Source: Rhizobium sp. Q54
GTDB taxonomy: Bacteria > Cyanobacteriota > Cyanobacteriia > Pseudanabaenales > Pseudanabaenaceae
NCBI GenBank assembly: GCA_943367755.1
Contig: CALRKB020000022.1
Span: 18,020-66,019, forward strand
Direction: 5' to 3'
Length of the DNA stretch: 48,000 bases
Shown: positions 5,048-30,120 of the stretch, one piece after another
Layout of the letters: each line of letters begins with the position of its first letter
How positions within the stretch are numbered: position 1 is the first letter of the stretch
Notes under the pieces: model-generated
Seen by the model: the letters and a program-made list of their open reading frames with translations, nothing else
Databases searched by the model: none
What the model was told of the DNA's origin: nothing
Program-made: the position numbers and the translations under genes

Positions 5048-5407
5048 TTAGCTCACCCCTACCTCAGCAGTTATGACAGGATCGTTCATCTCATGCATAT
5101 CTGCTTGGCAAACAGTGACAGTTAGCCTAAGTCCTAAAGCATTTAACCAATTATTCAACTTGTAAATCCCCAAACTCCCCAAATCAGACAACACCGCGTC
5201 TAGTTCTTGTTGACGTTGTTTAGCTTGTTCTGAAGACTCGCCTAGAGCTTCAGCCACATGACTGAGTGCAAGTTTGAGTAGTTCTGGTTCTGGTTCTTGC
5301 TCTTCTAAATGAGTTTCAAGGTAGACAGCAGCATAGTTAGGATCTTTAAGATTTGAAATCAGGAAGTCATGATAACTATCACTTGTTGGTGCGATCGCGT
5401 TCTTCAT
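5048..5407 (-). CDS. Antitoxin of a HigBA-like pair (addiction-module antidote / DNA-binding family)
   Basis: 119-aa ORF immediately downstream of the toxin ORF and overlapping it by 29 nt. The N-terminal segment FLISNLKDPNYAAVYLETHLEE resembles the antidote family that pairs with this toxin type. Confidence 0.6.
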   Translation of the reverse strand: MKNAIAPTSDSYHDFLISNLKDPNYAAVYLETHLEEQEPEPELLKLALSHVAEALGESSEQAKQRQQELDAVLSDLGSLGIYKLNNWLNALGLRLTVTVCQADMHEMNDPVITAEVGVS

Positions 5408-5723
5408 AGTCAGTCCAATACTCCTTAGCTTTCCGTATATCTCTAGCTTGCGTACTTTTGTCTCCTCCGCAAAGAAGAATTACTATCATCGTACCAACTT
5501 GCCCAAAGTAGATGCGATAGCCCGGACCATAATCTATTCTTAGTTCATATACACCTAATCCCACCGACTGGCAATCACCCAAGTTACCTTGACTAACTCT
5601 GTCAAGCCTTTTATTGACAACAGTTTTCGTTTTAATATCTCGAAGGGAGTCAAACCATTCTGCAAAAGGTGCCTTTCCATACCTAGTGAGATAACGCCTG
5701 ATTTCTTTGGGCTGCGATGCCAT
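5379..5723 (-). CDS. Type II toxin, RelE/ParE superfamily (HigB-like addiction-module killer)
   Basis: 114-aa ORF with APFAEWFDSLRD, YELRIDYGPGYRIYF and ILLCGGDKSTQARDIRKAKEYW, the pattern I recognise for this toxin family. The toxin-first gene order is as in HigBA. Confidence 0.75.
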   Translation of the reverse strand: MASQPKEIRRYLTRYGKAPFAEWFDSLRDIKTKTVVNKRLDRVSQGNLGDCQSVGLGVYELRIDYGPGYRIYFGQVGTMIVILLCGGDKSTQARDIRKAKEYWTDYEERDRTNK

Positions 5724-5833: not shown

Positions 5834-7147
5834 TTAAATCTGATCTGCGAGTTCAACTTCCACAAACCGCAGGCGGGGATACTGGTAGGCAATTACAGGT
5901 AACAGCATCGATAAGGCTCCCAAAATCACAAACAGCAGCCCAATACCTCGACCAGGGCCAACACCAATGATTTGGCCGATGCTTCCTGCTAGAGCGCCAT
6001 TTGCCGCCATTAATGGCTCGAATACGCGGTCTGCTAACGGCCCCGCCATGATATAGGCGATCGGCTGTAAGAAATTAATCGTCATTCCTTCCAATGCAAA
6101 CACCCTGCCTTGAACTTCGGCGGCAACTTTCCGCTGCAAAATGACCTGGCTACAGCAATTCACAATTGGCGAGCCCAGCGCGAATAAGAAGGCAGCCACA
6201 GCTACTAGGGGGACAGAAGCACGTAACCCAGTCGCCGCAATACACAAACCACCCAGCATTTGAAACCCTAAGATGCTGCTAATTTGGTTTGATGGTCCGC
6301 CCCTAGTACTAATTAAGAGCGTACTGACGAGCATCCCAACCCCATCAATGAAAAGAATCGTACCGAGAGCAGCCGGAGATGCAAAAGAGAGAATGAGAGG
6401 CGTTAGCAACACGCTAATAATTGCCAGCAGGAAGTTGGCGACGGCGAAAAAGATAATTAACCCTAATAGTCCAGGTCGAGCCTTGACATACTTTAATCCG
6501 TAGGTAAACTCGTTCAGCATTGAATCTTTTTTGACTTCCACTTCCTCTGGATCGTCAGTTTTAATCTTCGGAAATCGCACAATCGATAAGGTAACAATCG
6601 AACAAAGGAAGGTAATAAAGTCAACTAATAGAACCCCTTGCAACTGAATCGTTACGAGTAATGCACCGCCGAGGATGGGGGGAATCAATAATTTTAGGGC
6701 ATCGGCTAGTTGGGTCAGACCGTTAGCACGAGTGAGATACTCTTTGGGTACTAACTGGGGAATGGCCGCGTTATAGGCTGGCCACTGCAAGCTGCCAAAG
6801 GTGGAACTGAAGGCGACAGCAATATAGACATGCCAGACTTCCAACCGACCAGAAAATAAGAGGATGGCGATCGCCAGCATACTCAAACCTGCACCGCAAT
6901 CGCTAATCATCATGCAATAGCGACGATTCCAACGATCTGCTAGAGCACCAGCCAGTGGGACAACCAACAACGGCGGCAGCGAACCAAATAGGAAAGCGAT
7001 CGCAAACTGGGTTACCGATCCAGTTTTTTGGTAGACCCAGACATCGAGGGCAAAACTGCTAAGACCAGAACCGACCATCGACACCATCTGTCCAAACCAG
7101 ACGAGCATAAACACTCGCATTTTGGTTTTGATGCCGTGCTTAATCAT
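5834..7147 (-). CDS. MFS transporter (EntS/MFS_3-like exporter), last gene of the NRPS operon
   Basis: 437-aa highly hydrophobic ORF with ~12 predicted helices and the MFS motif-A-like GALADRWNRR. Its ATG overlaps the NRPS stop (8-nt overlap at 7140..7147). Confidence 0.85.
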   Translation of the reverse strand: MIKHGIKTKMRVFMLVWFGQMVSMVGSGLSSFALDVWVYQKTGSVTQFAIAFLFGSLPPLLVVPLAGALADRWNRRYCMMISDCGAGLSMLAIAILLFSGRLEVWHVYIAVAFSSTFGSLQWPAYNAAIPQLVPKEYLTRANGLTQLADALKLLIPPILGGALLVTIQLQGVLLVDFITFLCSIVTLSIVRFPKIKTDDPEEVEVKKDSMLNEFTYGLKYVKARPGLLGLIIFFAVANFLLAIISVLLTPLILSFASPAALGTILFIDGVGMLVSTLLISTRGGPSNQISSILGFQMLGGLCIAATGLRASVPLVAVAAFLFALGSPIVNCCSQVILQRKVAAEVQGRVFALEGMTINFLQPIAYIMAGPLADRVFEPLMAANGALAGSIGQIIGVGPGRGIGLLFVILGALSMLLPVIAYQYPRLRFVEVELADQI

Positions 7148-10100
7148 TTTGGTTTCCTCGATTAATAGTCTGGGATGCTGCGAGACAAACTTGGAGCTTG
7201 TCAGCTAAAACTAGAACGTTGGGTTTGGTCACCATCGTGTGGTGGTCGCCAGGGATCCAGTGAACGTCTACTCCTTTAGTGGCCAACTTTTGCCAACCAG
7301 CGATCGCTTCTAAAGAATCTGACGCTATCCCTCCCTCAGCAAGGAAGAGATCGACTTTGCCGCCATAGAGCTGAGGATTGTAGTCATTGGCAGCGAGGAT
7401 GTGACCTTTGAATACCTGGAGGAGTCTTTGAGCTTGAACGACATCCAATTCAGGCGGGATTCCCAAGATCGCACCATTTTTGCGTGCGAGTAACTCTTCG
7501 AGAAAATCCACATCGTCGGCTTCATTTAATTCTTCGTATTCGGTAAACGGCGATGTATCTAGCAATACGATCGAAGATACTTCCTGTCCTTGAGCTTGGA
7601 GTTGCTGGGCAATCTCGAAGGCCACCAGCCCACCGAAACTCCAGCCACCAATCTGGTAGGGCCCCTGTGATTGAACAGTCTGCATCACTTGGATGTAATA
7701 AGCTGCCATGTCTTCCACCTTGGTGTGCAGATGCTGTTCCTCATCCAAGTCTAGGGATTCTAGTCCGTAGACTGGTTGGTCTGGGTCTAAATTACGCGCT
7801 AACTCCAGATAGGAGAGCACGGTGCCACCGCCGGGATGGACGAAAAATAAAGGCGGTTTGGTGCCATCGGGATGGAGTGGCATTAAAGTGGATAGGAAAG
7901 GAGAAGCTGTGGTAGTGGAGCGAATAATCTGTGCCAGATGTGCGATTGTTGCCCCTTGAAAGAGGGTGGCGAGGGAGAGCTTCTTGCCAAATTGCTGCTG
8001 AATTCGTGCCATCAAACTTACTGCTAAAAGCGAATGACCGCCGAGGTTAAAAAAGTTGTCTCGAACACCGATTGGACTTACATGTAGCACCTCTTCCCAA
8101 ATCTGCATTAATTGGAGTTCTAGGGCATCACTAGGGGGCACAAAGGTATCGCTAGTTCCCAGATCTGGTACGGGTAGAGCTTTGCGATCGACTTTGCCAT
8201 TGGGAGTGAGAGGGATCCGATCTAGAAAGACAAATGCCCCAGGTACCATATAATCTGGTAGTTTGTGGTTGAGGAAATCGCGCAAGTAGTTAATTGTCAG
8301 TGCTTGGTTAGAGACTATATAGGCGACTAAATACTTATTTCCTGGTTTATCTTCTCTATCGATAACTTTTACTGCTTGGATATCAGGATGTTGTGTCAGT
8401 ACTGCTTCAATTTCTCCCAACTCAATGCGGAAACCGCGAATCTTTACCTGGTAATCGATCCGACCCAGGAATTCGATATTACCGTCGGGAAGATAACGGG
8501 CATTATCCCCAGTTTTGTATAAGTGGGCAGATATAGTGGGATTAAATGGATTGTCTATGAAAGCTTGCCGTGTGAGTACCAGATCGTCCAAATAACCGCG
8601 TCCGACCCCAGCCCCACCAACATAGAGTTCGCCTGCTACACCAATTGGAACGGGTTGTAGTTGCATGTCGAGGATGTATAGTTGGGTATTTGCGATCGGA
8701 CGACCGATTGGTAGATTGAGGATTTCCGGTGCTGGTGCTCGATCGATTGGATAATGAGTGACATCATCGGAACATTCCGTCGGACCATAAGCATTCAGCA
8801 TGGGAATCTTGGGATAGTATTCTAACCACTGACGGCATAACTGGGGTGGTAATGTTTCACCCGTGAGTATTAACCACCGCAAAGATAGTCTCGGTAGGCT
8901 TGTACTGAGTTCGATGTATTGGAGGATCGCCCGTAACAGGGAGGGAACAATCTCTAGAATGGAAATATGCTGGTGCTCTACGAAGGAGAGTAACTGAGCT
9001 GGGTCGGCAGCAGTTTCGGTACTGACAATCTCGACTCTTGCGCCGACTAGCAAGGGAATCAGAAACTGCCAAATACTAATATCAAAGGTTTGAGCGGCTG
9101 TTTGGGCGACGATATCATGAGCAGTTAATCCCAAATCTTTCACTTTTGCATATAAATGATTCAACATTCCCTGATGTTCGAGCATCGCTCCTTTGGGCTT
9201 TCCGGTGGAGCCAGAGGTGTAAATAACATAAGCCAGGTTGGACGGAGAACAGCGAACAGGTAGGTTTTCACTGGAGTAATATTCTGTATTGAGCTGATGG
9301 AAATCTATCAATTGTGGTGAATTATCGAGGCTATTAGCGATCGCTGCCAACATTGATGTCCAAGAGCTAGATGTCAAGATTAACGACACTTGACTTTGTG
9401 ATATTACTTGCTGAATGCGTTCGGCTGGGTGATGGGGATTGAGCGGCAGGTATGCCCCACCCGCTTTAAACACTGCCAACATTGCGGTGAGGAAGTCGGG
9501 ATTGCGATCGCTCACCAAAGCCACGATCGTTTCCGCACCCACACCCAGCTCCACTAAATGTCTTGCCCATTGATTCGCCCGGACGTTTAATTGTTGATAG
9601 GTGAGGTGTCGATCTCCAAAGCTAACCGCGATCGCATCGGGAGTGCGGGCAACTTGCGCTTCGAATAACTGTGGGAAACACCGATCTAAGGGATAATCAG
9701 CTTGAGTTTGATTCCATGTTTCAACGATTTGCTGCTGTTCGATCGCACTCAAGATAGGTAATTGGGCAACTCGCTGCTGAGGATTAGCAACAATACTTTC
9801 AAGCAAAGTCTGAAAATTGACTGCCAGGCGCTCGATGGTACTGCGATCGAACAAATCCGTCTTGTATTCCCAACCGCACACCAATCCTGACTCTGATGAT
9901 TGAATGGATAGTGTGAGATCGAACTTAGCATTAATATTCTCTAACTCTAGGGGCTCAATCTGGAGTCCAGGTAGTTCCAATTTGCCGCTTGGTGTATTCT
10001 CCATTTCAAACATCACCTGAAACAGGGGTGAATAGCTCAGAGAACGCTCTGGCTGCAGTTCTTCGACTAATTTCTCGAAAGGTAAATCCTGGTGTTCGTA

Positions 10101-11291
10101 AGCCCCCAAGGTCATTTCCTTCACTAGTTCAAGCAGTTCATGGAAAGTCGGATTTTCTTCGAACTTGACACGTAGCGCTAGCGTATTGACAAAAAAACCA
10201 ATTAAGGATTCAACTTCTCTACGGTTGCGGTTCGCGATCGGCGAACCAATGACGATATCGTCTTGTCCGCTGTAACGGGAAAGTAGCGCCGCAAATGCAG
10301 CGAACATAGTCATAAACAGAGTCGCACCGGATTGTTGGCTGAGCCTATTGAGTTGCTGGCTTAATCCGTGATCGAGTGGAAATTCAACGAAACTACCGAC
10401 AAATGTCTGAACTGATGGGCGGGGGCGATCGGTAGGTAATTCCAATAGGGGAGGTGCCGCAGCTAACAGTTCTTTCCAAAAGTTGAGTTGTTTTTGGAGG
10501 ATATCTCCAGTCAGCCATTGCCTTTGCCAGCACGCAAAGTCCGCATATTGAATGGGTAAGGATGGTAAATGAGCGGGTTCGCCCGCACAGGAAGATCGAT
10601 ATAGCTCGGACAACTCAGCGATAAATACGCCCATCGACCAACCATCAGAAATAATGTGGTGCATGGCGATTAGCAATACATGAGATGTTTCAGATAACCG
10701 GAGTAAGGTAACTCGGAGCAAGGGAGCCACGGAGAGATCGAAGGCTTGCTGAGACTCAGCGATCGCTAATTGTTTCACTTGTTCGGATTGTTCTGGCTCT
10801 GGCAAGTGTTGTAAATCTATGACTGGGAGTGCGATCGTGGTATCGCTAGCGATCGCCTGGACGGGGGCATCATTCACTAACTTGAAGCTAGTCCGCAGCA
10901 CTTCATGGCGACGCACAATTTCTCGGACAGCCATCTCTAGCGCAGTAACATTCAGAGAACCAAAGAGGCGCAGGGAAACAGGGATATTATAAGTAGCACT
11001 CGCTCCTTCTAAGTGATCGAGGAACCACAGTCGAGATTGCGCAAAGGATACGGGTAAATCTTGGTTTCGCTGAATTGGGATAATAGAATCGCAAGTAGAA
11101 TTAACCTCCAGATTACTTTGCTGGAGAAAGTTGATAACCTCTGCTTTCCGTTCAGCCAGTTCAGCGCGTATTTCAGTTGTCAACGCTCCTTTAGGTGCAT
11201 TACAGCGCAAGCGAATTTCATCTTGACTCTCCAGCCATAATTTGATGTCTGAATTAGCTAAGTTAGATAAGAATTCTTCAATGGTTTTCAT
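7140..11291 (-). CDS. NRPS, termination module: N-terminal TubC-type docking domain, then C-A-T-TE
   Basis: Docking domain [41 protein letters not shown]. C-domain motif [10 protein letters not shown]. A-domain cores [72 protein letters not shown]. T-domain [12 protein letters not shown]. TE motif GGWSFGG. Confidence 0.95.
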   Translation of the reverse strand: [1383 protein letters not shown]

Positions 11292-11360
11292 ATATTCATT
11301 CTGTAATGTTATTTTGAACTGCTGAGGCTAGTGGTTAGATAATGCATCTCGCTATCTTTT

Positions 11361-14300
11361 CTATATTTCGATTTCTTCGCGATCATCCACGCGATCATCA
11401 GAATTGATTTGAAGCTTCTCGATGGTCGATCTCATCTTATCGATGTTCTTAGCTAGTTCTGCGACAGTAGGCAATTCAAATAAGCGACGCAGTGGCAGTT
11501 CTACCCCAAACAGCGCGCGTAGCCGGGATGCGATTTGAGTGGCAAGGAGGGAATGTCCGCCTAGTTCGAAGAAGTTATTATGGATCCCTACTTTGGGTAT
11601 GTTTAGAACTTCCACCCATAGTTTGGCTAATTCTGTTTGAGTAGGCGTGGCCGGAGGGACAAAATCACCGATCAGGCTGAGTTCTAGATCTGGCATAGGT
11701 AGAGCATTTCTGTCTACTTTCCCGTTGGGGGTGAGAGGAATAGCATCTAGAAACACAAATGCTCCTGGCACCATGTAGTCCGGGAGTTTCTGTTTGAGAA
11801 AATCGCGTAAGTCGCTAGTTACCACTCCTGGACTTACCACAGCGTAAGCAGCTAGATATTGATTCCCTGGCCGCTCTTCTCTGGCAATAACTGTCGCTTC
11901 CCTCACTTGAGGATGTTGATGCAGTATCGCCTCAACTTCTCCTAACTCAATCCGAAAACCACGAATCTTCACCTGGTAGTCGATGCGACCCAGAAATTCG
12001 ATGTTTCCATCGGGGAGATAACGTGCTCGATCGCCAGTTTTATACAATCGTTCGTCCACTGACCGAGACAAGGGACTAGGCATAAAGGCTTGCTGGGTTA
12101 GCTCTGGGGCATTCAAATAACCGCGTCCAACACCGGCACCGCCTACGTAGAGTTCGCCTGCTACACCGATTGGTACGGGTTGTAACTGTCGATCGAGAAT
12201 ATATAATTGGGTATTTGCGATCGGTCGTCCGATCGTTAGATTCAGGATTTCGGCTGGAGGTGTCTCATAAATTGGATAATGAGTGACATCATCGGAACAT
12301 TCCGTCGGCCCATAGGCATTCATCATCGAGATACTGGGATAATGCTCGAACCACTGACGGCATAACTGGGGTGACAAAGCTTCTCCCGTCAGCAATAACC
12401 ACCTCAAACTAGACATTGCGGGTAGTATAGCTCCGTCTTCTATTTGCTGAAGCAACATCCGTAATAAGGATGGTACGATCTCTAGAATGGAAACTTGCTG
12501 ACGTTGAACTAGCGAGAGTAACTGAGCTGGATCTGTGGCAATTTCGGTAGGGATAATCTCAACTGTGCCACCGACTAGCAGAGCGACGAGAAACTGCCAA
12601 ATACTGATATCAAAGGTTTGGGATGCAGTTTGGGCGATTATATCATTAGCGCTCAAATTTAAATCCATCACTTTCGCATACAAATGATTCAGCATCCCAC
12701 GATGTTCGAGCATGGCTCCCTTGGGTGTTCCGGTGGAGCCAGAGGTATAAATTACATAAGCTAAACTATTTGGGGCAGAGCGGATTGGGAGGTTGTCAAT
12801 TGAATAATCTAGCTGCTCTAAACCTTCGATGCATACCAATTGAGATGTGGTTTCCAATTTGTCAACGATTGGAGAAATTACCGATTCCCACTGCGGCTGG
12901 ACTAATACCAATGGCACTTGACTTTGTGATAATACTTGCTGTATCCGTTCTGCTGGATGATCGGGATTCAGCGGGAGATATGCCCCACCTGCCTTGAATA
13001 TTGCCAGCATCGCCGTCAAGAAATCAAGATTGCGATCGCACATTAAGGCGACGATTGTTTCTGCTCCCACACCCAATTCCACTAAATGTCGCGCCCACCG
13101 ATTCGCACGAGTATTTAATTGCTGGTAGGTTAGCTGTTGGTCTCCAAATACTACCGCGATCGCATCTGGAGTAGACTCTACCTGTTGCTCGAATAACTGG
13201 GGGAAACACTGCTCTAAGGGATAGTCAGCTTGAGTATTATTCCAATCGCTAAGTAGCTGCTGTTGTTCGATCGCACCCAAGATCGGTAATTGGACAACTC
13301 GCTGGTATGGGTTAGCGACAATACTTTCAAGTAATGTTTGGAAGTTGATTGCCAGCCGCTCGATCGTTCCGCGATCGAATAGGTCGCTGTTATATCCTAG
13401 TTCCCCAGCCAATCCCGTTTTGGTTTCTGCCATCGACAGAAATAGATCGTTTTGGGTAGAGAGATCTTCTAGCTCCAGTGGATTGAGCGTCAGCCCTGGG
13501 AGTTCCAATTTCCCCAGCGGGGCATTTTGCAAGACGAACATCACCTGAAATAGTAGCGCATGGCTGAGAGATCGCTCTGGCTGAAGTTCCTCGACCAGTT
13601 TCTCTAGGGGAAATTCTTGGTGGTCATAAGCTCCCAAAGTCATTTCTTTGACTCGTTCTATTAGCTCCAGAAAAGTAGGATTGCCTTGCAATTGAGTTCG
13701 TAGGGCTAAAGTATTAATAAAACAGCCAATCAGAGACTCGACTTCGCTATGGTTGCGGTTGGCAATGGGCGAACCAATGACGACATCATCCTGACCGCTA
13801 TAACGGGAAAGTAAAGTCGCAAATGCAGCCAATAGAATCATAAATAAGGTCGAGCCAGACTTCTGGCTCAGTTGCTTGAGTTGCTGCGTTAATTCCCAAT
13901 CGATGTGGAAATATTTGGTGCCACCTTTAAATGTCTGAATTGATGGGCGGGGGCGATCGGTAGTGAGGGTTAAAAATTTGGGCGCATCCGCCAATTGTTG
14001 TCGCCAGTAGTTGAGTTGAGTTGCCATTACCTCACCAGTCAGCCATTGTCGCTGCCAATCAGCAAAATCAGCATATTGAATTGGGAGTTTGGGAAGTCGC
14101 AAGGGACTATTCGCTGCGAAACCTTCATAGAAACTTCCCAGTTCTCGAAACAGGATGCCCACCGACCAACCATCAGCAGCAATGTGATGCATTACCAAGA
14201 GGAGGATGTGTTCCGCTTCGTTCAAGCGCAGCAAAGTAGCCCGCAACATCAAATCCGCAGCCAAGTTAAACGGTTGCTGGGGTTCCGTGCTTAAAATTCT

Positions 14301-14714
14301 TTGCACTTCAACTTCGCGATCATGATCGAACAACTGACTGAGATCGATTTCTGTTAGTTCTACCGACTGTCCTTCAGTAATTACTTGAAATAAATTCCCA
14401 TCAACTGAAGCAAAAGCAGTTCGCAGCGCTTCATGGCGATCGATGATCGCATTGAGGGTTTGGCTCAGTGCCTCTACATTCAAGTTCCCATGCAATCGCA
14501 CCGCGATCGAGATATTGAAAGGGATATTCGGCTCCAATTGATTCAAGAACCATAATCTTTGCTGAGAAAAAGACAGGGGAGCAGGATCTGAACTTTGTCT
14601 AGGGATAATTTTGGATTTTTTTGCTCCAAGATCGACTTTCTTGATCAGACGTTCTTGTAAGAGGGCGAGCTTTTCAGGAGAGAGATTAGCGATGCGTTGA
14701 TTGAAGTTACTCAT
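11361..14714 (-). CDS. NRPS, one elongation module C-A-T with an acidic C-terminal docking tail
   Basis: C-domain motif [10 protein letters not shown]. A-domain cores [62 protein letters not shown]. T-domain [12 protein letters not shown]. The C-terminal tail [12 protein letters not shown] fits a partner for the TubC-type docking domain of the next protein. Confidence 0.95.
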   Translation of the reverse strand: [1117 protein letters not shown]

Positions 14715-14773
14715 GGTTGGTTTAGTAGGGGAGAATAGAGAAGATTAAAGATTGAAGATCGAAGATTGAATTG

Positions 14774-17700
14774 TTAATTGTTAATTGTTAATTCCATTTC
14801 TTCTAATTCAGCTAAAATGCGATCCATTTCATCTTGGTCTGTGTCCTCAGCTAAGTGCTCGACGACAGCGATCGCTAGATCTGCGATGGTTTGCTTTTCA
14901 AACAGCGATCGCAATGGCAGTTGTACTTGCAATGAATCCTGGATGCGGGAAATAACTTGAGTTGCTAGCAGAGAGTGTCCGCCCAACTCGAAGAAGTTGT
15001 GGTAAACACCAACCTGCTCTAGTCCGAGGATTTCTGCCCAAATTGTTGCGAGTATTTCTTCTACTCCAGTACGGGGCGCTACTACATTTGGATCTAATAC
15101 GGATTGAGCTTGTTCTAGGTTTGCTAGTGCTTTCCTGTCTATCTTACCGTTGGGAGTCAAAGGTAGAGACTCCAGCATCACAAAAGCTGAGGGAATCATA
15201 AATTCAGCTAGGCGATCGCTCAGGAAATTCCGCAATTCGCTGGTAGAAATTAGTTCTGTACTGGGAACGATATAAGCGACTAAACGCTTCCCACCAGATT
15301 GGTCAATTCTGGCAACTACTACTACTTCCCGCACTTGGGGATGGAGACTCAACACCGCTTCTACTTCTCCCAATTCAATGCGGAAGCCGCGAATCTTCAC
15401 CTGTTGGTCGATTCGACCGAGAAACTCAATATTGCCGTCTGGTAAATAGCGAACTAAATCACCGGTTTTATAGAGTCGTCCAGAGTAGTCTTGACTAAAG
15501 GGATTAGGAATAAATTTCTCAGCAGTTAATTCTGGATGATTCAGGTAGCCTTGGGCCAAACTAATACCTCCAATATGCAGTTCTCCAGGAATCCCAATTG
15601 GAACTGGTTGGAGGTGGCGATCTAGAATGTAGGTTTGGATATTATTGATCGGTTTGCCGATGGGCGGTGGTGATTTAGTATCAGTGCTATCGGTGCAAAT
15701 AGCTGTTGTCGCACACACCGTCGATTCTGTCGGCCCGTAACCATTGAGAAAACGTCTTCCCTTCGACCATTGCGCCACCAAATCAGGAGGACAGGCTTCT
15801 CCCGCCACAATAATCGTGCGCAAGTCTGGATACTCACCACTTGGCATTGCCGCTAATGCGGAAGGAGAGAGGGTGACGTGGGTAATTTTGCGATCGCGCA
15901 GCAGATTCATCAGATTTGTCCCTGGAAGTAGGGATTCGCGGGTGTCTAGATACAGCGTAGCGCCAGCACATAGAGACATCACTACTTCCGAAATCGAAGC
16001 ATCGAAGCTAAACGAGGCAAATTGCAGCACGCGGCTATTGGGATGTACGTCGAAGATGCGAATCTGAGCGAGAGCAAGGTTGCATAATCCCTGATGGGCA
16101 ACGAGGACACCTTTCGGTTTGCCTGTAGAACCTGATGTATAAATCACATAGGCTAAGTTGTGAGGTTTTACCCCGCAGATCGGATTAGTATTTCGCGCCC
16201 GCGAAATTACACCCCAGTCTGTATCCAGGCAAACTGTTGGGACGGAGCGATCGGGTAAACTTGCCACCAATTTCGCTTGCGTCAGCAGCACCTCCACCTG
16301 GGAATCCGACAGCATGAAACTCAATCGATCTTGGGGATAGGCTGGATCTAGTGGCACATAAGCACCACCCGCCTTGAGAATTCCCAACAGTCCAACAATC
16401 ATTTCTAGGGAACGCTCGACACAGATTCCAACTAATACCTCCGGTTTCACTCCCAAGATTTTCAAGTAGTACGCCAGTTGATTCGCTCGATCGTTCAATT
16501 CGCGGTAAGTCAGTTGTGCGTTCTCAAACTGGACAGCGATCGCGTCTGGGGTCTTTTCGACCTGTGCTTCAAACAATTGATGGATACATTTATCCTGGGG
16601 ATAATCTGTTTGGGTGGCGTTCCAGTCAATCAGTAACTGCTGCTGTTCCGCAGTACTTAGCAGTGGTAATTGGGCGACTCGCTGTTGGGTATTAGCAACA
16701 ATTCCTGAGAGTAAAATCTGAAAATGCCTTGCCATCCGCTCGATCGTCGCTGGATCGAATAAGTCGCGATTGTAAATCAGTTCTCCAGTCAGTCCTGCTG
16801 CTGTTTCCTCCATCTGCAATGTCAGATCGAACTTGGCATTGACGTGCTCCATTTTAAAGGGAGTCATGGTTAAATCTGAAAGTTCCAGTTTCCCTACTGG
16901 AGCATTCTGCAAGACGAACATTACCTGAAACAAGGGGGTATAACTGAGGGAACGCTCTGGCTGCAGTTCTTCCACAAGTTTCTCGAAGGGCAGATCTTGA
17001 TGTTCGTATGCGGCCAAAGTCATTTCCCGCACTCGTTCTAGCAGTTCGGCAAAGGTCGGATTGCCATCTAGCTGCGTGCGCAAGACCAGGGTATTAACAA
17101 AAAATCCAATCAAGGATTCGATGCCGCTGTGATTGCGATTGGCGATTGGGGAACCGATCGCGATATCTTCTTGACCGCTATAACGCGAAAGTAAAGTCGC
17201 AAACGCTGCTAGCAAAGTCATAAATAGGGTTGCACCCGATCGCTGTGACAGAGTTTTAAGCTGCTGGGTTAACTCGCGATCGAGTTGAAAAGCTACACTA
17301 GCCCCTTGAAATGTCTGTATCGAAGGGCGAGGTCGATCGGTGGGGAGTTCCAGCAACGGGGGGACCGCATCTAATTGGTATTTCCAGTAATCGAGGTGAG
17401 TTTGGAGTACTTCCCCGGTCAACCATTGGCGCTGCCAACGAGCAAAGTCAGCATATTGGATTGGCAACTCAGGTAATTCGACAGGTTTCCCAGCACAGAA
17501 ACCCTGATACAGCGTAGATATCTCATCAATAAATATGCCCATCGACCAACCATCAGAAATAATGTGGTGCATGGTGAGGAGCAGCAGATGGGATTTTTCT
17601 TCCAATCGTACCAACGTAACTCGCAGCAAGGGAGCCATGCCTAGATCGAAGGTTTGCTGCGACTCCGTGATCGCAAACCGTTGCACTTGATCGGCCTGTT

Positions 17701-19915
17701 CCTCTGCTAGTAAGTGTTGTAAGTCTACCAAGGGAATAGAGATCGATAGATCGCTGGCAATCTCCTGGACTTGAACACCATCAACCATCTTAAAGCTAGT
17801 CCGCAATATTTCGTGGCGCTGCACGATCGCTTGTACTGCCATTTCTAACGCCGTGACGTCGAGATCGCCCGTCAACTGGAGCGGTTCTGGCATGTTATAG
17901 GTGGCGCTTCCACCTTCTAATTGATCGAGAAACCACAATCTTGTTTGAGCGAAGGATAAAGGTAAAGATTCATCGCGAGGAACTCGCACAATTGGCGGTG
18001 GTACGCGGTCGTTCAGCCATCCTTGTACTCTCATACCAGCTTCCTGATTAGCCTCAATTAATTCGCTGAATTGAGCGATCATAGGCAGTTCAAATAAGCT
18101 CCGCAAAGGCAGTTCTACCCCAAACAGCGATCGCAATTGGATAATTACCTGTGTCGCCAGCAGGGAATGTCCTCCCAACTCAAAGAAGTTGTCATGAATG
18201 CCTACTTGATGGATATTGAGAATTTCTGCCCATAGTTGTGCCAGCATTGCCTGTGTGGGAGTAGCAGGAGGGACAAAATCGGTATACCAATTTAGATCCA
18301 GATCTGGCACGGGTAGAGCCTGGCGATCTACTTTGCCATTGGGAGTTAGTGGCATCGATTCTAAGTAGACAAATGCTCCAGGTATCATATAGTCTGGCAA
18401 CCACTGGTTAAGAAAATCGCGCAAGTTGCTAGTTGTAACTGAGCGATCGGCGATCGCATAGGCAGCTAAATATAAATTTCCCAGGCGATCTGCTCTGGCA
18501 ATTACCACCGCTTCCTGCACTTGGGGATGTTGACTTAGAACCGCTTCAATTTCGCCCAACTCAATCCGAAAGCCGCGAATCTTTACCTGGCAGTCAATCC
18601 GCCCCAGAAATTCGATATTACCATCGGGGAGATAACGGGCGCGATCGCCAGTTTTATATAAACGCGCCGAGTCTGCGGGGTTAAAAGGGTTTGCAATAAA
18701 AGCCTGTGCCGTGAGAGTTGGATTATTCAAATAACCGCGTCCCACCCCAGCACCGCCCACATAAAGTTCGCCCGCCTCACCAATTGGCAAGGGTTGCAAC
18801 TGCGGATCGAGAATATATAATTGGGTATTGGAGACTGGACGACCGATTGGGAGATTTAGGATTTCCGATGCGGGTGGTTGGTAAATTGGATAATGAGTGA
18901 CATCATCCGAACATTCCGTTGGCCCATAGGCATTCATGATTGGAATACTGGGATAATACTCCAGCCACTGACGGCATAACTGGGGAGGCAGGGGTTCACC
19001 TGTAAGTAATAACCACCGCAAATTGGCTAGTTTGTGTCGAATCCCATCAAATTCTATTTGTTGGATAAGTGCGCGTAGTAGTGATGGCACGATCTCCAGA
19101 ATAGAAATGCACTGACGCTCTACAAGAGCAAGTAACTGAGTTGGGTCTGTAGTAATTTCGGTACTAATAATCTCAACTTTGCCACCAACGAGCAAAGCAA
19201 CGAGAAATTGCCAAATGCTAATATCAAAGGTTTGGGATGCTGTTTGGGCGACGATATTGCTAGCACTCAAATTCAAATCCACTATCTTCGCATATAAATG
19301 ATTCACCATCCCCCGTTGTTCGAGCATCGCTCCCTTAGGAGTGCCAGTGGAACCAGAAGTGTATATTACATAGGCTAGATTATTTGGAGTGCAGCGGATC
19401 GGCAGATTTTCCGTCGCACCTTCTACCCGATCTAAATCTTCGAGGCATAACAATTGGGGTTTAGTTTCTAATCCTTCGACAATTGGAGAAATTATCGCTT
19501 CCCATTTCTGCTCAGACAATAGCAACGCCACCTGACTTTGCGCTAATACCTGCTGCGTGCGCGTTGCGGGATAATCGGGATTTAGCGGTAGATATGCTCC
19601 ACCCGCTTTGAACACTGCTAACATCGCTGTTAGAAAATCGATATTGCGATCGCACATCAAGGCAACAATGGTTTCTGCCCCCACACCCAGTTCGACTAAA
19701 TGCCTTGCCCACCGATTTGCACGGGCATTTAATTGGTGGTAGGTTAGCTGTCGATCGTTAAATCTAACGGCGATCGCATCTGGGGTGCGCGATACCTGTT
19801 GCTCGAACAACTGGGAGAAACACTGGTCTAAGGGATAATCAGTCTTGGTATCGTTCCAATTGTGGAGCAACTGCTGCTCCGTGGTACTTAGTAGTGGGAG
19901 GTGCAAATTAGTCAT
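14774..19915 (-). CDS. NRPS, loading plus first elongation module: A-T-C-A-T
   Basis: Starts directly with a C-A-linker-like sequence ([28 protein letters not shown]) and an A domain. Two T domains ([14 protein letters not shown] twice), one C domain ([10 protein letters not shown]), and a second A domain with distinct cores ([44 protein letters not shown]). The ATG overlaps the upstream gene's stop (ATGA at 19912..19915). Confidence 0.95.
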   Translation of the reverse strand: [1713 protein letters not shown]

Positions 19916-20961
19916 GACACAGATACTCCAAATTCTTCTCGTTCTAACCAGGAAACTGGTAGAAATGACTTGATTGTGTCGCCCAGATTTTGTGCGATCG
20001 CGATTTTGTAGGCTAACTGTCCCACTGCTAAATCGAGCACGCCCAATCCAAATGGACTGAAGATCGCGAGTTGGTGATCGTCTTGGCGTGCAGGTGCAAC
20101 ACCATTGAGAATATCGCCTAGAGTACAGCGAATAAAATCGCGATTTCCTGTTTGTTGTTCGGCGAGGTGAATTGATGTTTGGGCGCGGGATACATGATCG
20201 ATATCATCAACAACGTTATCCGCCGCTAAGATGATTTCTGGGGACAAGTCTCGCAGGGAAATATGTAAGATGATCGTGCCGGGGTGACACTGAGAAAGGT
20301 CGGATATGTGCGGTTTGGCGGCGGTGGTGGCAAAAGAAACCACGGCAGAATTCCGAAAAACAGGATCGGATTCTGTAACAATAACTATCTCCAATTTCTC
20401 AGACAATTGCTGACACTTTCGTGTAAATTGTTCGGCGCGTTCTCGGCTCAGATCGTAAACTAGGACGGTTTCAATTTCTGGACAAGTGGTTAAGAGAAAC
20501 CGCAGGATTTCAAAATTAATTAACCCAGTCCCAATCATTCCCAGCGTCGTCAATTTTTGCTGGCCGCGTAATTGTTCCGCCGCGATCGCCGCACTTGCCG
20601 CAGTACGTTTGGCACTGATAATCGAGCTTTCCATAATTGCTTTGGTGTGGCCAGTTTGGGTGGAATTGAGGATTAAAGTAGCCGAAGCTCTTTCCATCCC
20701 CAAGGCGAGATTGTCTGGGAAAGAAGCAATCCATTTAATCCCCGTCGCATTCACCTCACCACCTAAATAAGCAGGTAAAGCAATAATCCGGTCTTTTTCA
20801 TGATTTGGGAATCGCAAAAAGCTGGAATGAGGCAAACAGCTATCACCTTTGGCATGGATTTGATAGGCTAATTTGACAGCTTCCAAGATCTCGCGATCGC
20901 GGTTTTGCAATAGGGTAAAAATCTCATTACCTCTTAAGAGCAGAATGTCATCATAATTCAT
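19912..20961 (-). CDS. sbnB: SbnB-like NAD-dependent dehydrogenase (ornithine cyclodeaminase / mu-crystallin family), L-2,3-diaminopropionate pathway
   Basis: The blocks RIIALPAYLGGEVNATGIKWIASFPDN and MERASATLILNSTQTGHTKAIMESSIISAKRTAASAAIAAEQL parallel S. aureus SbnB as I recall it. The gene is paired with an SbnA-like gene. I prefer the ATG at 20961 (MNYDDILLL), which lies downstream of the neighbour's stop, over the ORF-track start at 21033, which overlaps the upstream gene. Confidence 0.8.
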   Translation of the reverse strand: MNYDDILLLRGNEIFTLLQNRDREILEAVKLAYQIHAKGDSCLPHSSFLRFPNHEKDRIIALPAYLGGEVNATGIKWIASFPDNLALGMERASATLILNSTQTGHTKAIMESSIISAKRTAASAAIAAEQLRGQQKLTTLGMIGTGLINFEILRFLLTTCPEIETVLVYDLSRERAEQFTRKCQQLSEKLEIVIVTESDPVFRNSAVVSFATTAAKPHISDLSQCHPGTIILHISLRDLSPEIILAADNVVDDIDHVSRAQTSIHLAEQQTGNRDFIRCTLGDILNGVAPARQDDHQLAIFSPFGLGVLDLAVGQLAYKIAIAQNLGDTIKSFLPVSWLEREEFGVSVS

Positions 20962-20984
20962 GGCAAATTCCTGAAGATTTCTCT

Positions 20985-22094
20985 TTAATTTAGTGAATAC
21001 ATAGCAGCAGCACCAAAGTGTTCCTTGACCCAACTATCTGTATAAATTGTGTCGAGATAGCGTTCGCCGCGATCGCATAAAATCGCCGCACAAGTGGCAC
21101 CTGCGGGAATCTCTGTCAGCATTTTTCTGATTGCAGATATCACTGCACCCGATGAACCGCCAGCTAAGATAGCCTCACTCCGTAGCAATTGATAACAGCC
21201 ACTAATACATTCCATGTCGGATACGTGTATGACTCGATCCTCTAATCCAGGTTGGAACAATTCTGGAACTCGCGCCGCACCATGTCCGGGAATCAATCGT
21301 TTGCTGCGTTTGTCGCCAAAAATGACACTGCCTTTGGCATCAACAGCAATAATTTTGGTTTTGAGATTGTGGCTCTTGACATATTCCGAGCAGCCGCGCA
21401 GGGTGCCACACGTACCAGTAGCGCAGAATAAGTAGTCCAATTTACCGTCGAGAGCAGTAGCAATTTCGTGCATGGTCTGATGATGCGCGCGGACATTATT
21501 CATATTGGCGTACTGTTGACACCAAAAGCTCTTGGGAATTGAATTCAGTAATGACTTGACTCGATTAATACGAGCGGGTAGAAAATCACCAGTGATTGGG
21601 TCTGGTTCAGTGACTACATCAACTTCTGCGCCATAAGTTTTAAGGATTTTGATGTTCTGTTGGGTAGTTTTAGGATCGACAACACAGATTAGATGTAAAT
21701 TGAGTACGGCACAGGCTTGGGCTAGGCCAATTCCTAAATTTCCCGAACTGGATTCAATTATTGTATATCCGGCCTGAATATCTCCATTCTCAAATGCGCT
21801 TTTCAGCATATTTAGAGCTGGCCGATCTTTAACGCTACCACCAGGATTAAACATTTCCAACTTACCGAATAGTTGGAAATCAGCATCTTTGAAAACTTTT
21901 TCTAATTTAATTAGTGGTGTATTCCCCACCGTTGATAAAATCCCCGAATTCAATGGAAGGGCATTATGTTTTGAGGAGATGCCTACTAAATCGTGATCGC
22001 TTTGCTGCGTAACTATCAGTTGGGGGATTATAGGGGGAGCAGTTTTACTAGATCGCGAATGAGGTGGCTTAGTTTTGAACATTGGTTTTGACAT
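20985..22094 (-). CDS. sbnA: SbnA-like PLP-dependent enzyme (cysteine-synthase fold), L-2,3-diaminopropionate pathway
   Basis: The blocks GNTPLIKL, NPGGSVKDRPA, IIESSSGNLGIGLA, VVDPKTTQQNIKILKTYGAEV, IIAVDAKGSVIFGDK and ILCDRGERYLDTIYTDSWV closely track SbnA as I recall it. The likely start is the ATG at 22094 (MSKPMFK), preceded by a GGAG; the ORF-track start is 22163. Confidence 0.85.
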   Translation of the reverse strand: MSKPMFKTKPPHSRSSKTAPPIIPQLIVTQQSDHDLVGISSKHNALPLNSGILSTVGNTPLIKLEKVFKDADFQLFGKLEMFNPGGSVKDRPALNMLKSAFENGDIQAGYTIIESSSGNLGIGLAQACAVLNLHLICVVDPKTTQQNIKILKTYGAEVDVVTEPDPITGDFLPARINRVKSLLNSIPKSFWCQQYANMNNVRAHHQTMHEIATALDGKLDYLFCATGTCGTLRGCSEYVKSHNLKTKIIAVDAKGSVIFGDKRSKRLIPGHGAARVPELFQPGLEDRVIHVSDMECISGCYQLLRSEAILAGGSSGAVISAIRKMLTEIPAGATCAAILCDRGERYLDTIYTDSWVKEHFGAAAMYSLN

Positions 22095-22529
22095 ATCTAT
22101 TTTTCTCCGTGATGTCAGATATCTTGATTTTGTTTGAGCATTTCCCAAATCCAACTTCCACACAAATGGCCAAGTTCCTAGGAAGTTGATTTGAGGATTT
22201 ACTTAGTGAATGTGATGCCCAACTAGCATTTCAGTTGCTGCTTCCCTAACTGCAACAATAAGAAGTTCAGTAACCCTATTGAGATATTTCTGTCTGCTCA
22301 AAGCCCCAATTTTAGACCTTTGAGATCTCCTAATTATTTTTGTTCTGATGCCTTAAAATTGAGTAATTCTTCTCGCCTATCAAATTGGCTATAAAAACTC
22401 ATTTATAAAATAAAACCGATCTCTTTGCATTCATATAGCTAAGTATTCATTACTGATTGGGAATCAATTGTGAGTGAGATCAATCATTAACTGTGATTCT
22501 AGTCACATCTTGAAAATACAAATCAAAAT

Positions 22530-24931: not shown

Positions 24932-25222
24932 ATGATAACAAAAACTGCACCCCAGATAACAACCGATCTCGAACAGTTTTACTTGGAGCTGTTGAAAGAC
25001 CCGATGCTGCAAGAGCGGCTTAAAGCAGCAACAGATCCAGATAGTCTTTGCGAACTAGCTGTAAAGTTGGGAGACGAGAAAGGCTACTTTTTCACTAAAG
25101 AGGAAGTCTTAGCTGCAATGGCAATAGAAGTTGCCATTGGGAATGAGTGGATTGAGGCTCTGGCCGATGATGGTGAAGGTGAGGATGTGCCGATGACATA
25201 TACACTAAGTGCCTGCTACTAA
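24932..25222 (+). CDS. RiPP precursor peptide with a Nif11-like leader and a short Thr/Ser/Cys/Tyr-rich C-terminal core
   Basis: 96-aa ORF with AAGGAGA 7 nt upstream of the ATG. The N-terminal segment LEQFYLELLKDPMLQERLKAATDPDSLCELAVKLGDEKGYFFTKEEV fits the Nif11-type leader pattern. The C-terminus is ...WIEALADDGEGEDVPMTYTLSACY. It is the first gene of the YcaO operon. Confidence 0.8.
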   Translation: MITKTAPQITTDLEQFYLELLKDPMLQERLKAATDPDSLCELAVKLGDEKGYFFTKEEVLAAMAIEVAIGNEWIEALADDGEGEDVPMTYTLSACY

Positions 25223-25268
25223 ATTTTGTGATAGTTATAGCGTCTTTTAGAATCTAAAAGAGATTTAT

Positions 25269-25326
25269 TTATGGGGGTGAAGGGGTTCTACCCCTTCTTG
25301 GGGGCGTTGCCCCCAAATCCCCTATT
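25269..25326. repeat. G/C-tract nested-hairpin element, copy 1
   Basis: TTATGGGGGTGAAGGGG-TTCTA-CCCCTTCTTGGGGG-CGTTG-CCCCCAAATCCCCTAT, containing AAGGGG/CCCCTT and TTGGGGG/CCCCCAA stems. A related copy lies at 26667..26751. Confidence 0.7.
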
Positions 25327-25500
25327 CGTTGGCAATAGAAGTTGCCATTGGAAGCTTATTTTTTGCCTTCCTAGTAAGTATTTTGATTTAACTTTTTCTG
25401 ATAAAGATTTTAGCCGAAACCCCTGAAATGGTAACACGGTATCTCCATCTCAGTTGGAAGTTTTAGGGTCGGTAGTTCATCTCAAATAAGAGCAAACTAT

Positions 25501-26613
25501 ATGAAGTATTCCATGGAAAGTTACCTAAAAATCGTTGTCTCCCAACTACATCCTGACCTGGTTTCTCCCGAAGCTTTGTCCCACATCCAGTCTCTCACCC
25601 AAGTTTTACCTTCTTCGTCTTTGGCTGGGCTTGAATGTCGTTTGGGAGCAAACCAATCGGGAGTTGACTTCCAAGTCCGTCTCCCATGCCTTGACCAAAA
25701 ATTACCAGAAAGTTTTTCAATCGCTCCAGCATGGCAATTTTTGCAAGACTTTTATCAGAATTGGACGATACCCAATTCTTCACTGCAGCAAGAGATTAGA
25801 AATGTTGGGCTGGAATTTGACGTGAACGAACGGATGCCTCAAGTCCCCATTCCCTCTATCTTCCTGCAATTTAGAGAGGAAAATCCTCTTGATGCTGAAA
25901 GACTACTACAAATGGTCAGGCTCCTTAACCATCAGATTTCTCCACTGCTTGAGTCGAATCTGCGCTGTTGTGCTGATTCCTTACCTGTTGGGACAATGAT
26001 TAGCCATCTCGGAGCAATGTTATCTCGCGTAGCCAAAGCTGTCAGGGTGAATGTCCAGGGAATTTCTCCAAATCAATTATTAGATTACCTAATGCAAATT
26101 GGCTGGACAGATTCAATACATACATTCTCTACTCTTGTATCGACTGTATCAGAGTTCACTGATACAGTTATCCTAAGTTTTGATATGGGAGATACTATTC
26201 TGCCTAGAATTGGTTTGGAATGTTTTCTGAATAAACAGCCCTACACTGAACCACGATGGGAGCGATTTTTAGACTATTTGGTTGAAAAAGGAGTGTGTAC
26301 TCCAGCTAAGAAAAATGCTTTTCTGACTTGGCCTGGATTGTCCCAGAAACCATCTGTTCCAGACCTATGGCCCAGTAATATTAGCGTTGGAGATCGCTTC
26401 TTAGGTGCTAGAGCGTCTAGCGTCTTTTGGCGAAAGGTTAGCCATATAAAACTGATCTATCAACCAGGTATGCCATTGGAAGCCAAAGGATATCTAGCTT
26501 TTGGTCATAACTGGTTTGCTTCTGATGTCCTGACTGAGAAGAAGCAAAAATCTGAAGAGTTTAAGGAGCAAAATTTGCTAATTAGCGACACAACTCAACC
26601 AGTTGTTTCCTAA
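25501..26613 (+). CDS. Orphan 370-aa protein of the RiPP operon (function unknown; diverged ABBA-type prenyltransferase is only a hypothesis)
   Basis: Long ORF co-directional with the operon. I recognise no family motif. A recurring strand-like motif is present (AGLECRLG, VGLEFDVN, IGLECFLN, plus AVRVNVQG, HIKLIYQP, AKGYLAF). There is no DDxxD motif. Confidence 0.6.
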   Translation: MKYSMESYLKIVVSQLHPDLVSPEALSHIQSLTQVLPSSSLAGLECRLGANQSGVDFQVRLPCLDQKLPESFSIAPAWQFLQDFYQNWTIPNSSLQQEIRNVGLEFDVNERMPQVPIPSIFLQFREENPLDAERLLQMVRLLNHQISPLLESNLRCCADSLPVGTMISHLGAMLSRVAKAVRVNVQGISPNQLLDYLMQIGWTDSIHTFSTLVSTVSEFTDTVILSFDMGDTILPRIGLECFLNKQPYTEPRWERFLDYLVEKGVCTPAKKNAFLTWPGLSQKPSVPDLWPSNISVGDRFLGARASSVFWRKVSHIKLIYQPGMPLEAKGYLAFGHNWFASDVLTEKKQKSEEFKEQNLLISDTTQPVVS

Positions 26614-26666
26614 ATAATCTAGCCTTAAGCGTCAATATAGCGCTTTTCAATTAAGAAAGGGTTCGC

Positions 26667-26751
26667 TTATGGGGTGAAGGGGCGGAACCCCTTCTTGGGG
26701 ATGCGTACGGAACGTAGGCGTAGACGTAGACGTTAGCCCCAAATCCCCTAT
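26667..26751. repeat. G/C-tract nested-hairpin element, copy 2 (with an internal CGTAG(G/A)-rich insert)
   Basis: CTTATGGGGTGAAGGGG-CGGAA-CCCCTTCTTGGGG...GCCCCAAATCCCCTATA shares both ends with copy 1. The centre holds ATGCGTACGGAACGTAGGCGTAGACGTAGACGTTA. Confidence 0.7.
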
Positions 26752-26783
26752 ACAAAGTATTAAAAAATGAGGGAAGAGACACC

Positions 26784-27809: not shown

Positions 27810-27868
27810 TTAATCGCATTTAAGTTCAGATATAACTTTCAAAACCCAAAATCTCAGAGAGGTAATTT

Positions 27869-30103: not shown

Positions 30104-30120
30104 ATTTAAGGATCTTTCAT

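Follow-up and report, generated by a model that had tools for sequence, protein, structure and literature searches.

We describe a six-gene operon on the minus strand of a cyanobacterial contig in which homologues of SbnA and SbnB, the enzymes of L-2,3-diaminopropionate (Dap) synthesis, are combined with a four-module nonribosomal peptide synthetase (NRPS), and whose product is likely, as predicted from the sequence, to be the all-L peptide Dap-Tyr-Dap-Dap, a small and strongly basic molecule. The operon is located at positions 5834-22163 of a 48,000-nucleotide stretch (hereafter the window) of contig CALRKB020000022.1 from the assembly GCA_943367755.1, which is named Rhizobium sp. Q54 and is placed in the Pseudanabaenaceae by GTDB. 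Three of the four adenylation (A) domains, those of modules 1, 3 and 4, have an Asp-Asp pair in their specificity codes and probably load Dap rather than L-2,4-diaminobutyrate (Dab). Dap is favoured because the supply of the precursor, the recurrence of the gene combination, the second shell of the pocket and the phylogeny of the domains agree. An earlier note on this DNA had proposed a peptide X-Tyr-X-X in which X is cationic, either Dap or Dab, and this outline stands, both from the codes and from the tests of SbnA and SbnB.

The product of the operon is probably new, and irrespective of function, a small polycationic peptide containing three residues of Dap would count as a new natural product. 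The operon is also a concrete cyanobacterial candidate for the genes behind peptide-bound 2,3-diaminopropionate, and thereby bears on the disputed signals of 2,3-diaminopropionate, 2,4-diaminobutyrate and BMAA (beta-N-methylamino-L-alanine) in hydrolysates. Genome mining had earlier turned up genes for SbnA and SbnB in a few cyanobacteria (Mantas et al. 2022, as summarized in PMC9414260), although without a link to a defined peptide.

Operon organization and diaminopropionate supply

The open reading frames (ORFs), examined with Pfam and NCBIfam, form a single tight operon of six co-directional genes. The first, sbnA (20985..22094), encodes a predicted N-(2-amino-2-carboxyethyl)-L-glutamate synthase dependent on pyridoxal phosphate (PLP), the enzyme of the first step to L-Dap (TIGR03945); its ORF is readable from a GTG at 22163, and the form starting at the ATG at 22094 corresponds to a 369-aa protein on record in NCBI. 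It is followed by sbnB (19912..20961) for a predicted NAD+-dependent dehydrogenase of the ornithine cyclodeaminase family that releases L-Dap and 2-oxoglutarate (TIGR03944). The start of sbnB is most likely the ATG at 20961 rather than the TTG at 21033, and the gene is therefore without overlap with sbnA.

Then come three NRPS genes with adenylation, thiolation (T), condensation (C) and thioesterase (TE) domains. NRPS1 (14774..19915; 1713 aa) contains modules 1 and 2 in the order A-T-C-A-T, with A1 at 18281-19858, T1 at 18041-18238, C2 at 16631-17968, A2 at 15143-16573 and T2 at 14870-15055. NRPS2 (11361..14714; 1117 aa) is module 3, C-A-T, with C3 at 13251-14588, A3 at 11718-13193 and T3 at 11448-11633, and terminates in an acidic tail, a probable docking element for NRPS3. 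NRPS3 (7140..11291; 1383 aa) comprises module 4 and the release function, with a TubC_N docking domain at 11118-11282, C4 at 9723-11063, A4 at 8193-9665, T4 at 7926-8114 and a type I thioesterase at 7227-7853, the nucleophile of which is the Ser in GWSFGG. The last gene (5834..7147) encodes a DHA3-type efflux transporter of the major facilitator superfamily (MFS; PF07690, 110.8 bits; PF05977).

Overlaps of 4 nt and 8 nt were measured for sbnB/NRPS1, which are translationally coupled, and NRPS3/MFS, respectively, while the remaining junctions are gaps of 23 nt (sbnA-sbnB), 59 nt and 69 nt. The earlier note had described the same gene order, strand and domain architecture, had called the junctions overlapping or short and had seen no epimerization (E) or methyltransferase domains, all of which was recovered here; neither domain type was detected in the window. 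The core motifs A3, A4, A5 and A10 are intact in the A domains, all four of which have the A10 lysine (PNGK[VI]DR). GGHSL was found in 4 of 4 T domains and HHxxxDG in 3 of 3 C domains, and the TE contains both GWSFGG and GDHH. With collinear C-A-T modules, intact core motifs and a terminal TE, the system is a type I modular NRPS. The operon contains no starter C domain, acyl ligase, MbtH gene or tailoring gene.

In Staphylococcus aureus, SbnA and SbnB convert O-phospho-L-serine and L-glutamate to L-Dap and 2-oxoglutarate. The SbnA homologue of the window scored 436.8 bits against TIGR03945 (equivalog cut-off 349.95), as compared to 219-233 bits for the CysK models and 188 bits for CysM in NCBIfam, and its best match in the PDB was S. 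aureus SbnA (5D84-87, 280 bits), ahead of cystathionine beta-synthase/CysK structures (about 171 bits) and CmnB (143 bits). In two control loci with genuine CysK (L009 and L013) the relation was reversed, with 432 and 402 bits for CysK versus 227 and 247 bits for SbnA. Clustering with cysteine synthases had been named in the earlier note as an outcome that would speak against its proposal; the profile, structure and control comparisons agree that the protein is of the SbnA type and not a cysteine synthase. SbnB likewise passed the equivalog cut-off of TIGR03944 (418 bits against 326.9), and its best solved match was S. aureus SbnB (4M54, 161 bits), with alanine dehydrogenase next (113 bits), which confirms its identity.

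The active-site residues of S. aureus SbnA are reportedly, after Kobylarz et al. in 2016, PLP-Lys47, Arg132, Tyr152 and Ser185. Alignment to 5D87 showed that the equivalents of the PLP-binding lysine, Arg132 and Tyr152 are conserved in the window protein and that Gly (motif ATGTCGT) takes the place of Ser185. From family membership we infer that the two enzymes make Dap: SbnA would condense O-phospho-L-serine with L-glutamate, and SbnB would oxidatively cleave the adduct to L-Dap and 2-oxoglutarate. Compared with the S. aureus enzyme, the window SbnA is extended at its N-terminus by about 50-70 residues, a stretch rich in Pro, Ser and Lys. A metagenome scan with the SbnA alignment was uninformative because the search patterns were too general: 77 of the 80 loci encoded proteins of 30-38% identity that looked CysK/CBS-like and had no SbnB homologue nearby, while the other three were SbnA-like and located on short contigs without NRPS genes.

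Adenylation pockets and the choice between Dap and Dab

Stachelhaus codes were read from a MAFFT alignment to the GrsA segment. A1 and A3 both have DIWELTADD(K), whereas A4 has DIWEITADD(K), with the motif WLILTGE, and thus differs at code position 5; the earlier assignment of DIWELTADD to modules 1, 3 and 4 holds for the first two of these and has to be amended for module 4. The three domains are paralogues with mutual identities of 72-76% at the protein level and about 75% at the DNA level, a divergence that points to old duplications. For A2 the code is DASTIAGVC(K), the same as had been read by hand. It matches the classical Tyr(3) code, which is said to have been given as DASTVAAVCK by Stachelhaus et al. 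in 1999, at 8 of 10 positions, and because of this agreement we predict with moderate confidence that module 2 loads a Tyr-like aromatic residue.

The best solved match of the pocket segment is the pyoverdine synthetase PvdL (PDB chains 9up2, 9lco, 9lcp and 9lcq), which reads FDISVWQ..VLE..MLPTGE..NAYGPAECSDD and has the code DIWELTADD. Fragments from Pseudomonas aeruginosa that are near-identical to these chains have the same code, so that the DIWELTADDK given in the earlier note for the Dab module of PvdL is borne out. All ten residues of this code are identical in A1 and A3, while A4 is off at position 5.

A second relative is the third A domain of SulM from the sulfazecin pathway, with the code DVWEMNADD, which has been crystallized with L-Dap (PDB 9N1V); the beta-amine of Dap is held by Asp2443 and Asp2444, which correspond to code positions 8 and 9, in an arrangement called mode 3 (PMC12042044). 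The mutant N2411T, with Thr at code position 6 as in the window, was 18% more active on Dap, and BLAST homologues of SulM A3 carry Ile at position 2, again as in the window (PMC12042044). A1, A3 and A4 have the combination that defines mode 3, an Asp pair at code positions 8 and 9 plus a Glu or Gln at position 4, and would accordingly be placed to hold the side-chain ammonium between the two Asp residues and load Dap. The same source states that the mode 3 pocket is found in no characterized cluster besides sulfazecin (PMC12042044); despite this, the PvdL domain in the PDB has such a pocket, DIWELTADD, and so do many orphan clusters linked to SbnA and SbnB (SbnAB). In the pocket family of the window, Dap is thus verified as the substrate of one member, while for another Dab is deduced from the product.

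Precursor supply points to Dap. No aminotransferase, including those of class III and the diaminobutyrate (PvdH) type, was found among the ORFs of the 48-kb window, whereas pvdH adjoins pvdL in Pseudomonas (PMC3207962). Conversely, the operon encodes nothing besides the NRPS that could consume Dap made by SbnAB.

The combination also recurs. The loci reached via SbnA, two in Chamaesiphon (L001, L002) and one each in Coleofasciculus (L004), Nostoc (L006) and Rhizonema (L007), represent four differing cyanobacterial architectures, and each has a DIWE[LI]TADD domain. When the A domain was taken as the starting point, the gene context of ten loci was looked up and 3 of them revealed an SbnA-type gene within 10 kb, on two metagenome contigs (L027, L028) and in an actinomycete (L032); SbnA was checked by hidden Markov model, and a gene or fragment of the ornithine cyclodeaminase family (SbnB-like) was located beside it in all three. 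A class III aminotransferase was seen in none of the ten. Furthermore, an orphan NRPS cluster on plasmid p1 of Bacillus cereus SB1, with SbnI-like, sbnA and sbnB genes, carries DVWEVNADD.

For the second shell we used the 34-residue signature, with the list of positions as in NRPSpredictor2. H210, A213, T326, T333 and H334 were common to 12 of 12 SbnAB-linked domains, including the three of the window, and SulM A3, for which residues from 235 onward only were read, also has T326, T333 and H334. The Pseudomonas PvdL-type sequences, in contrast, all have N210, S213, A326, A333 and Phe or Leu at 334 (7 of 7), and in total seven second-shell positions differ consistently between PvdL and the window. 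Among 120 family matches the motif DD[VI]TH was present in 80 and DDVA[FL] in 6. In a neighbour-joining tree, the mode 3 domains formed a clade with 91% bootstrap support in which SulM A3 is basal and PvdL nested, with Ser-type DVWHxSLVD domains as the sister group. Since Ser and Dap are isosteric, the tree fits a scenario where Dap is the ancestral substrate and PvdL a derived user of Dab.

Several observations weigh against Dap. The ten-residue code of A1 and A3 is that of the terminal module of PvdL, the product residue of which is L-2,4-diaminobutyrate, and the window pocket is nearer to PvdL (49.6% identity, 231 bits), the top match among solved structures, than to SulM A3 (35.7%, 201 bits). 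Code-based predictors would call Dab, as antiSMASH does for PvdL (PMC12195549). On these grounds the Asp-Asp domains could load Dab like module 4 of PvdL, giving Dab-Tyr-Dab-Dab, with SbnAB serving another role or a minor congener. We consider this unlikely, given that the window lacks a counterpart of the aminotransferase gene found beside pvdL, that a translationally coupled Dap pathway would be left without a consumer in the operon, that the same code family recurs beside SbnAB in unrelated taxa, that positions 326, 333 and 334 agree with the Dap-binding SulM A3 and not with PvdL, and that neither the E domain on the Tyr module of PvdL nor the C domain behind it has an equivalent in the window. 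Other points against Dap concern the supporting evidence itself. Seven of the ten look-ups showed neither SbnAB nor aminotransferase genes and were uninformative, five having flanks filled by NRPS genes and two (L029, L033) unrelated genes. The PvdL-specific second-shell residues may reflect ancestry rather than function, because all come from a single lineage, and support for the internal nodes of the tree is weak. The Gly at the Ser185 position of the window SbnA is a small caveat. On Streptomyces plasmids the NRPSs linked to SbnAB have different codes (DA[LW]QFAT[VI]D), and mode 3 is therefore not the sole partner of SbnAB. Finally, the window covers 48 kb of a genome in which a Dab pathway may be located elsewhere, and the peptide is itself a prediction.

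It is also conceivable that the domains have a relaxed specificity that extends to Dap as well as Dab, perhaps also Ser, so that precursor supply would set the mixture of products. The first-shell code of the window is used for Dab in PvdL, and a nearly identical code is used for Dap in SulM A3; the mode 3 clade is sister to Ser-type domains, and SulM A3 was assayed on Dab and Dap analogues, with Asp mutants that are still modestly active on Ser and Thr (PMC12042044). On the other hand, the pocket of SulM A3 is called tight, with weaker affinity for alternate diamino acids (PMC12042044), and the in-cluster supply would make Dap the main substrate in vivo regardless; relaxed specificity therefore seems to us very improbable. 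A separate question, independent of the substrate, is whether the peptide is a siderophore or another metallophore, as the earlier note had suggested. SbnA and SbnB are best known from staphyloferrin B, SbnA homologues on Pseudonocardia and Agrobacterium plasmids are located in IucA/IucC loci with receptors, the Rhizonema locus combines an Asp module with hydroxylases (TauD and JmjC) of the kind that is typical for siderophores with beta-hydroxy-Asp, and siderophore roles for cyanobacterial 2,3-diaminopropionate were proposed by Mantas et al. 2022, as summarized in PMC9414260. Yet the 48-kb window contains no TonB-dependent receptor, periplasmic binding protein or ABC importer and no hydroxylase, N-oxygenase, catechol or salicylate genes, the MFS protein is far below the cut-off of the EntS model (96 bits versus 324), and the predicted peptide, apart from one phenol, is without the classical ligands of Fe(III). 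The siderophore suggestion is thus not supported, and we rate such a function as quite improbable. The caution expressed in the same note that BMAA is not supported was justified, because the window is without a methyltransferase.

Beyond this operon, we suggest tentatively, as a possibility short of probable, that the widespread mode 3 domains of the type D[IV]WE[LIVM][TN]ADD outside Pseudomonas PvdL are generally specific for Dap and related to Ser-activating domains, and that the operon makes an undescribed peptide of three Dap and one Tyr. If so, code-based predictors that label mode 3 domains as Dab, following PvdL, would be systematically wrong, and the peptide, which the TE may oligomerize or which may form a ring via the side-chain amine of a Dap, would be a genuine peptide-bound source of the 2,3-diaminopropionate measured in some cyanobacterial hydrolysates. 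For such predictors, one ten-residue code stands for Dab in PvdL and a near-identical pocket for Dap in SulM A3; genomic context together with residues 326, 333 and 334 may separate the two groups of users.

Assembly of the peptide and comparison with known systems

With Dap on modules 1, 3 and 4 and a Tyr-like aromatic residue on module 2, three LCL-type C domains would build Dap-Tyr-Dap-Dap from a free N-terminal amine, which is expected because neither a starter C domain nor an acyl ligase is present. There is no E domain, and the peptide should therefore be all-L. In line with this, C3, which follows the Tyr module, is most like the LCL type: its best solved relatives are Txo2, Txo1 and TycC6 (363-274 bits), as compared to 180 bits for the PvdL C domain that follows an E domain and 140 bits for SrfA-C. 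The Ser-type TE, the closest solved relatives of which are AB3403 and NocB, would free the peptide by hydrolysis or by cyclization onto a Dap amine; the computed [M+H]+ values for Dap3-Tyr are 440.2252 (linear) and 422.2146 (cyclic), as compared to 482.2722 and 464.2616 for Dab3-Tyr. The co-translated MFS pump would export the product. It scored 227.6 bits with TIGR00900, which is below the cut-off, the JGI names for its 90% cluster are "DHA3 family, macrolide efflux", and we presume it to be the exporter. We infer the substrate Dap, Tyr at position 2 and the mode of release.

The operon appears to work like the front end of the sulfazecin pathway, where SbnAB-type supply feeds a mode 3 A domain. 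Both have SbnA/SbnB homologues in the cluster (SulH and SulG in sulfazecin), and the window domains share with SulM A3 (PDB 9N1U/9N1V) the Glu at code position 4, the Asp-Asp pair at 8 and 9, T326, T333 and H334, and a spacing of 29 residues between code positions 4 and 5. They differ at code positions 2, 5 and 6, which are Ile, Leu/Ile and Thr in the window and Val, Met and Asn in SulM, and the pocket identity is about 36%. According to PMC11298585 and PMC12042044, sulfazecin has one C-terminal Dap, which carries an N-sulfonate and whose beta-lactam ring is closed by the TE of SulM. The window instead has three Dap-type modules, a Ser-type TE and no sulfotransferase. A sulfazecin-type cluster would have a sulfotransferase and, for the C-terminal Dap, a TE of the SulM type that forms the beta-lactam. 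A monobactam-type cluster was rejected, as there is no sulfotransferase and the SulM TE was not among the PDB matches of the Ser-type TE with E below 1e-10.

Module 4 of PvdL shares with the window the code DIWELTADDK and a Tyr module (DAST..VCK type) directly before it, and PvdL makes Glu-D-Tyr-Dab (PMC12195549). Its substrate, however, comes from PvdH, a diaminobutyrate aminotransferase, where the window has SbnAB, and its Tyr-Dab junction has an E domain and a C domain following it, as opposed to an LCL-type C domain without E domain. PvdL also includes an acyl-starter module and hands its product on to other NRPSs, whereas the operon has no acyl ligase. A pyoverdine-like chromophore was rejected on account of the missing E domain and because no PvdP/PvdO-type genes adjoin the operon; a multicopper oxidase located 15 kb off, on unrelated ground, was not counted for this possibility.

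The SbnA and SbnB proteins of staphyloferrin B synthesis in S. aureus are the best profile and structural matches, and the two genes are adjacent in both systems. Staphyloferrin B is, however, assembled by NRPS-independent siderophore (NIS) synthetases (IucA/IucC), while the window uses an NRPS, and the operon is not a NIS siderophore cluster. The window also lacks an SbnI-like serine kinase and uptake genes and has the Gly in place of Ser185. The tuberactinomycins (capreomycin and viomycin, with CmnB/CmnK) resemble the predicted product in having several Dap residues per short NRPS peptide and SbnA/SbnB-like enzymes. CmnB and CmnK are nevertheless much weaker matches to the window SbnA and SbnB (143 and 77 bits), and genes for capreomycidine, carbamoyl transfer and desaturation are absent from the operon. 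As in the tuberactinomycins, ring closure may proceed through a Dap side-chain amine.

Further parallels are orphan loci (L001/L002, L004, L006, L007 and the B. cereus plasmid locus, L122) in which SbnA and SbnB adjoin an NRPS with a D[IV]WE[LIV][TN]ADD domain. They differ from the window operon in module number and partner residues, and some add PhyH, TauD, JmjC, methyltransferase, type II TE or ABC exporter genes.

Flanking genes and related loci

The closest genomes are those of Chamaesiphon spp., in which L001 and L002 are orthologous clusters. L001 has the identical order of sbnA, sbnB and NRPS genes, and its first three codes are identical to those of the window; it carries an additional ORF with DUF2808 between sbnA and sbnB. 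The ratio of nonsynonymous to synonymous substitutions (dN/dS) between NRPS1 and its orthologue in Chamaesiphon sp. VAR_4 (L001) was 0.11, at a dS near saturation, and the genes are therefore under purifying selection. The Nostoc locus has a homologous MFS protein with 58% identity. A megablast search of the operon against plasmids yielded trivial NRPS motif matches only, a promoter/terminator scan performed at chance level (29 found versus 27.8 expected), and an Rfam scan of the sequence gave no match.

Directly downstream of the MFS gene, a gene for a RelE/ParE-family toxin (TIGR02683, 126.9 bits) overlaps one for a 119-aa presumed antitoxin (5048-5723, minus strand). This pair marks the edge of the cluster and, like a pentapeptide-repeat protein in the same flank, appears unrelated to the operon. 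The upstream flank contains a divergent leucyl aminopeptidase gene, also unrelated.

Three kb from the operon, a cluster of the type encoding peptides synthesized by ribosomes and modified post-translationally is located on the plus strand (24932-33287). It comprises genes for a Nif11-family precursor (24932-25222), a 370-aa protein without family assignment (25501-26613), a 341-aa protein with repeats like those of squalene-hopene cyclase (26784-27809), a fused leader-binding/YcaO cyclodehydratase (27869-30103; TIGR03604, 276 bits), an azoline oxidase of the ThcOx type (30046-31581) and an ABC exporter (31578-33287), and probably makes a thiazole/oxazole peptide. The multicopper oxidase mentioned above (36660-38177, minus strand), a radical SAM protein with a Radical_SAM_N2 domain (39773-41455, minus strand) and a TPR and FGE-sulfatase/EgtB-like protein (41586-44420, plus strand) have no evident link to the operon.

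Among the family matches, seven sequences, including Bradyrhizobium (P0010, P0025, P0027, P0029, P0030, P0041 and P0118), read VIW[EQ]ITADD and are without the otherwise invariant Asp235. The loss of this residue, which binds the alpha-amine, suggests a substrate without a free alpha-amino group.

In the locus of Rhizonema sp. PD37 (L007, 12153-17354), a gene for a stand-alone class I S-adenosylmethionine-dependent methyltransferase, which could be assigned to no particular family, directly follows sbnB. The NRPS genes of this locus encode a TauD fusion at the C-terminus and a module with an Asp code (DLTKIGHVG), and are followed by a JmjC/cupin hydroxylase gene. It looks like a beta-hydroxy-Asp siderophore locus, and the putative methyltransferase is a possible lead for the formation of N-methyl-Dap, a BMAA-type residue.

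The orphan cluster on plasmid p1 of B. cereus SB1 (NZ_CP045607.2; 8494-9192 and 19155-22062) contains genes for a penicillin-acylase-family protein, three NRPSs, a TE, a phosphopantetheinyl transferase, a ParB-N (SbnI-like) protein, SbnA and SbnB, and its codes are Thr, DVWEVNADD and then twice of the Asn/Asp type. Its identification as a zwittermicin cluster was rejected, as there is no polyketide synthase upstream. On two Streptomyces plasmids (L120, 31789-32460; L121, 21891-22553), the A domains nearest to sbnA have the codes DALQFATVD and DAWQFATID and belong to the NRPS gene located behind an MbtH gene; in L121 an ornithine carbamoyltransferase is encoded as well. These codes may be a separate actinomycete solution for Dap or a Dap derivative.

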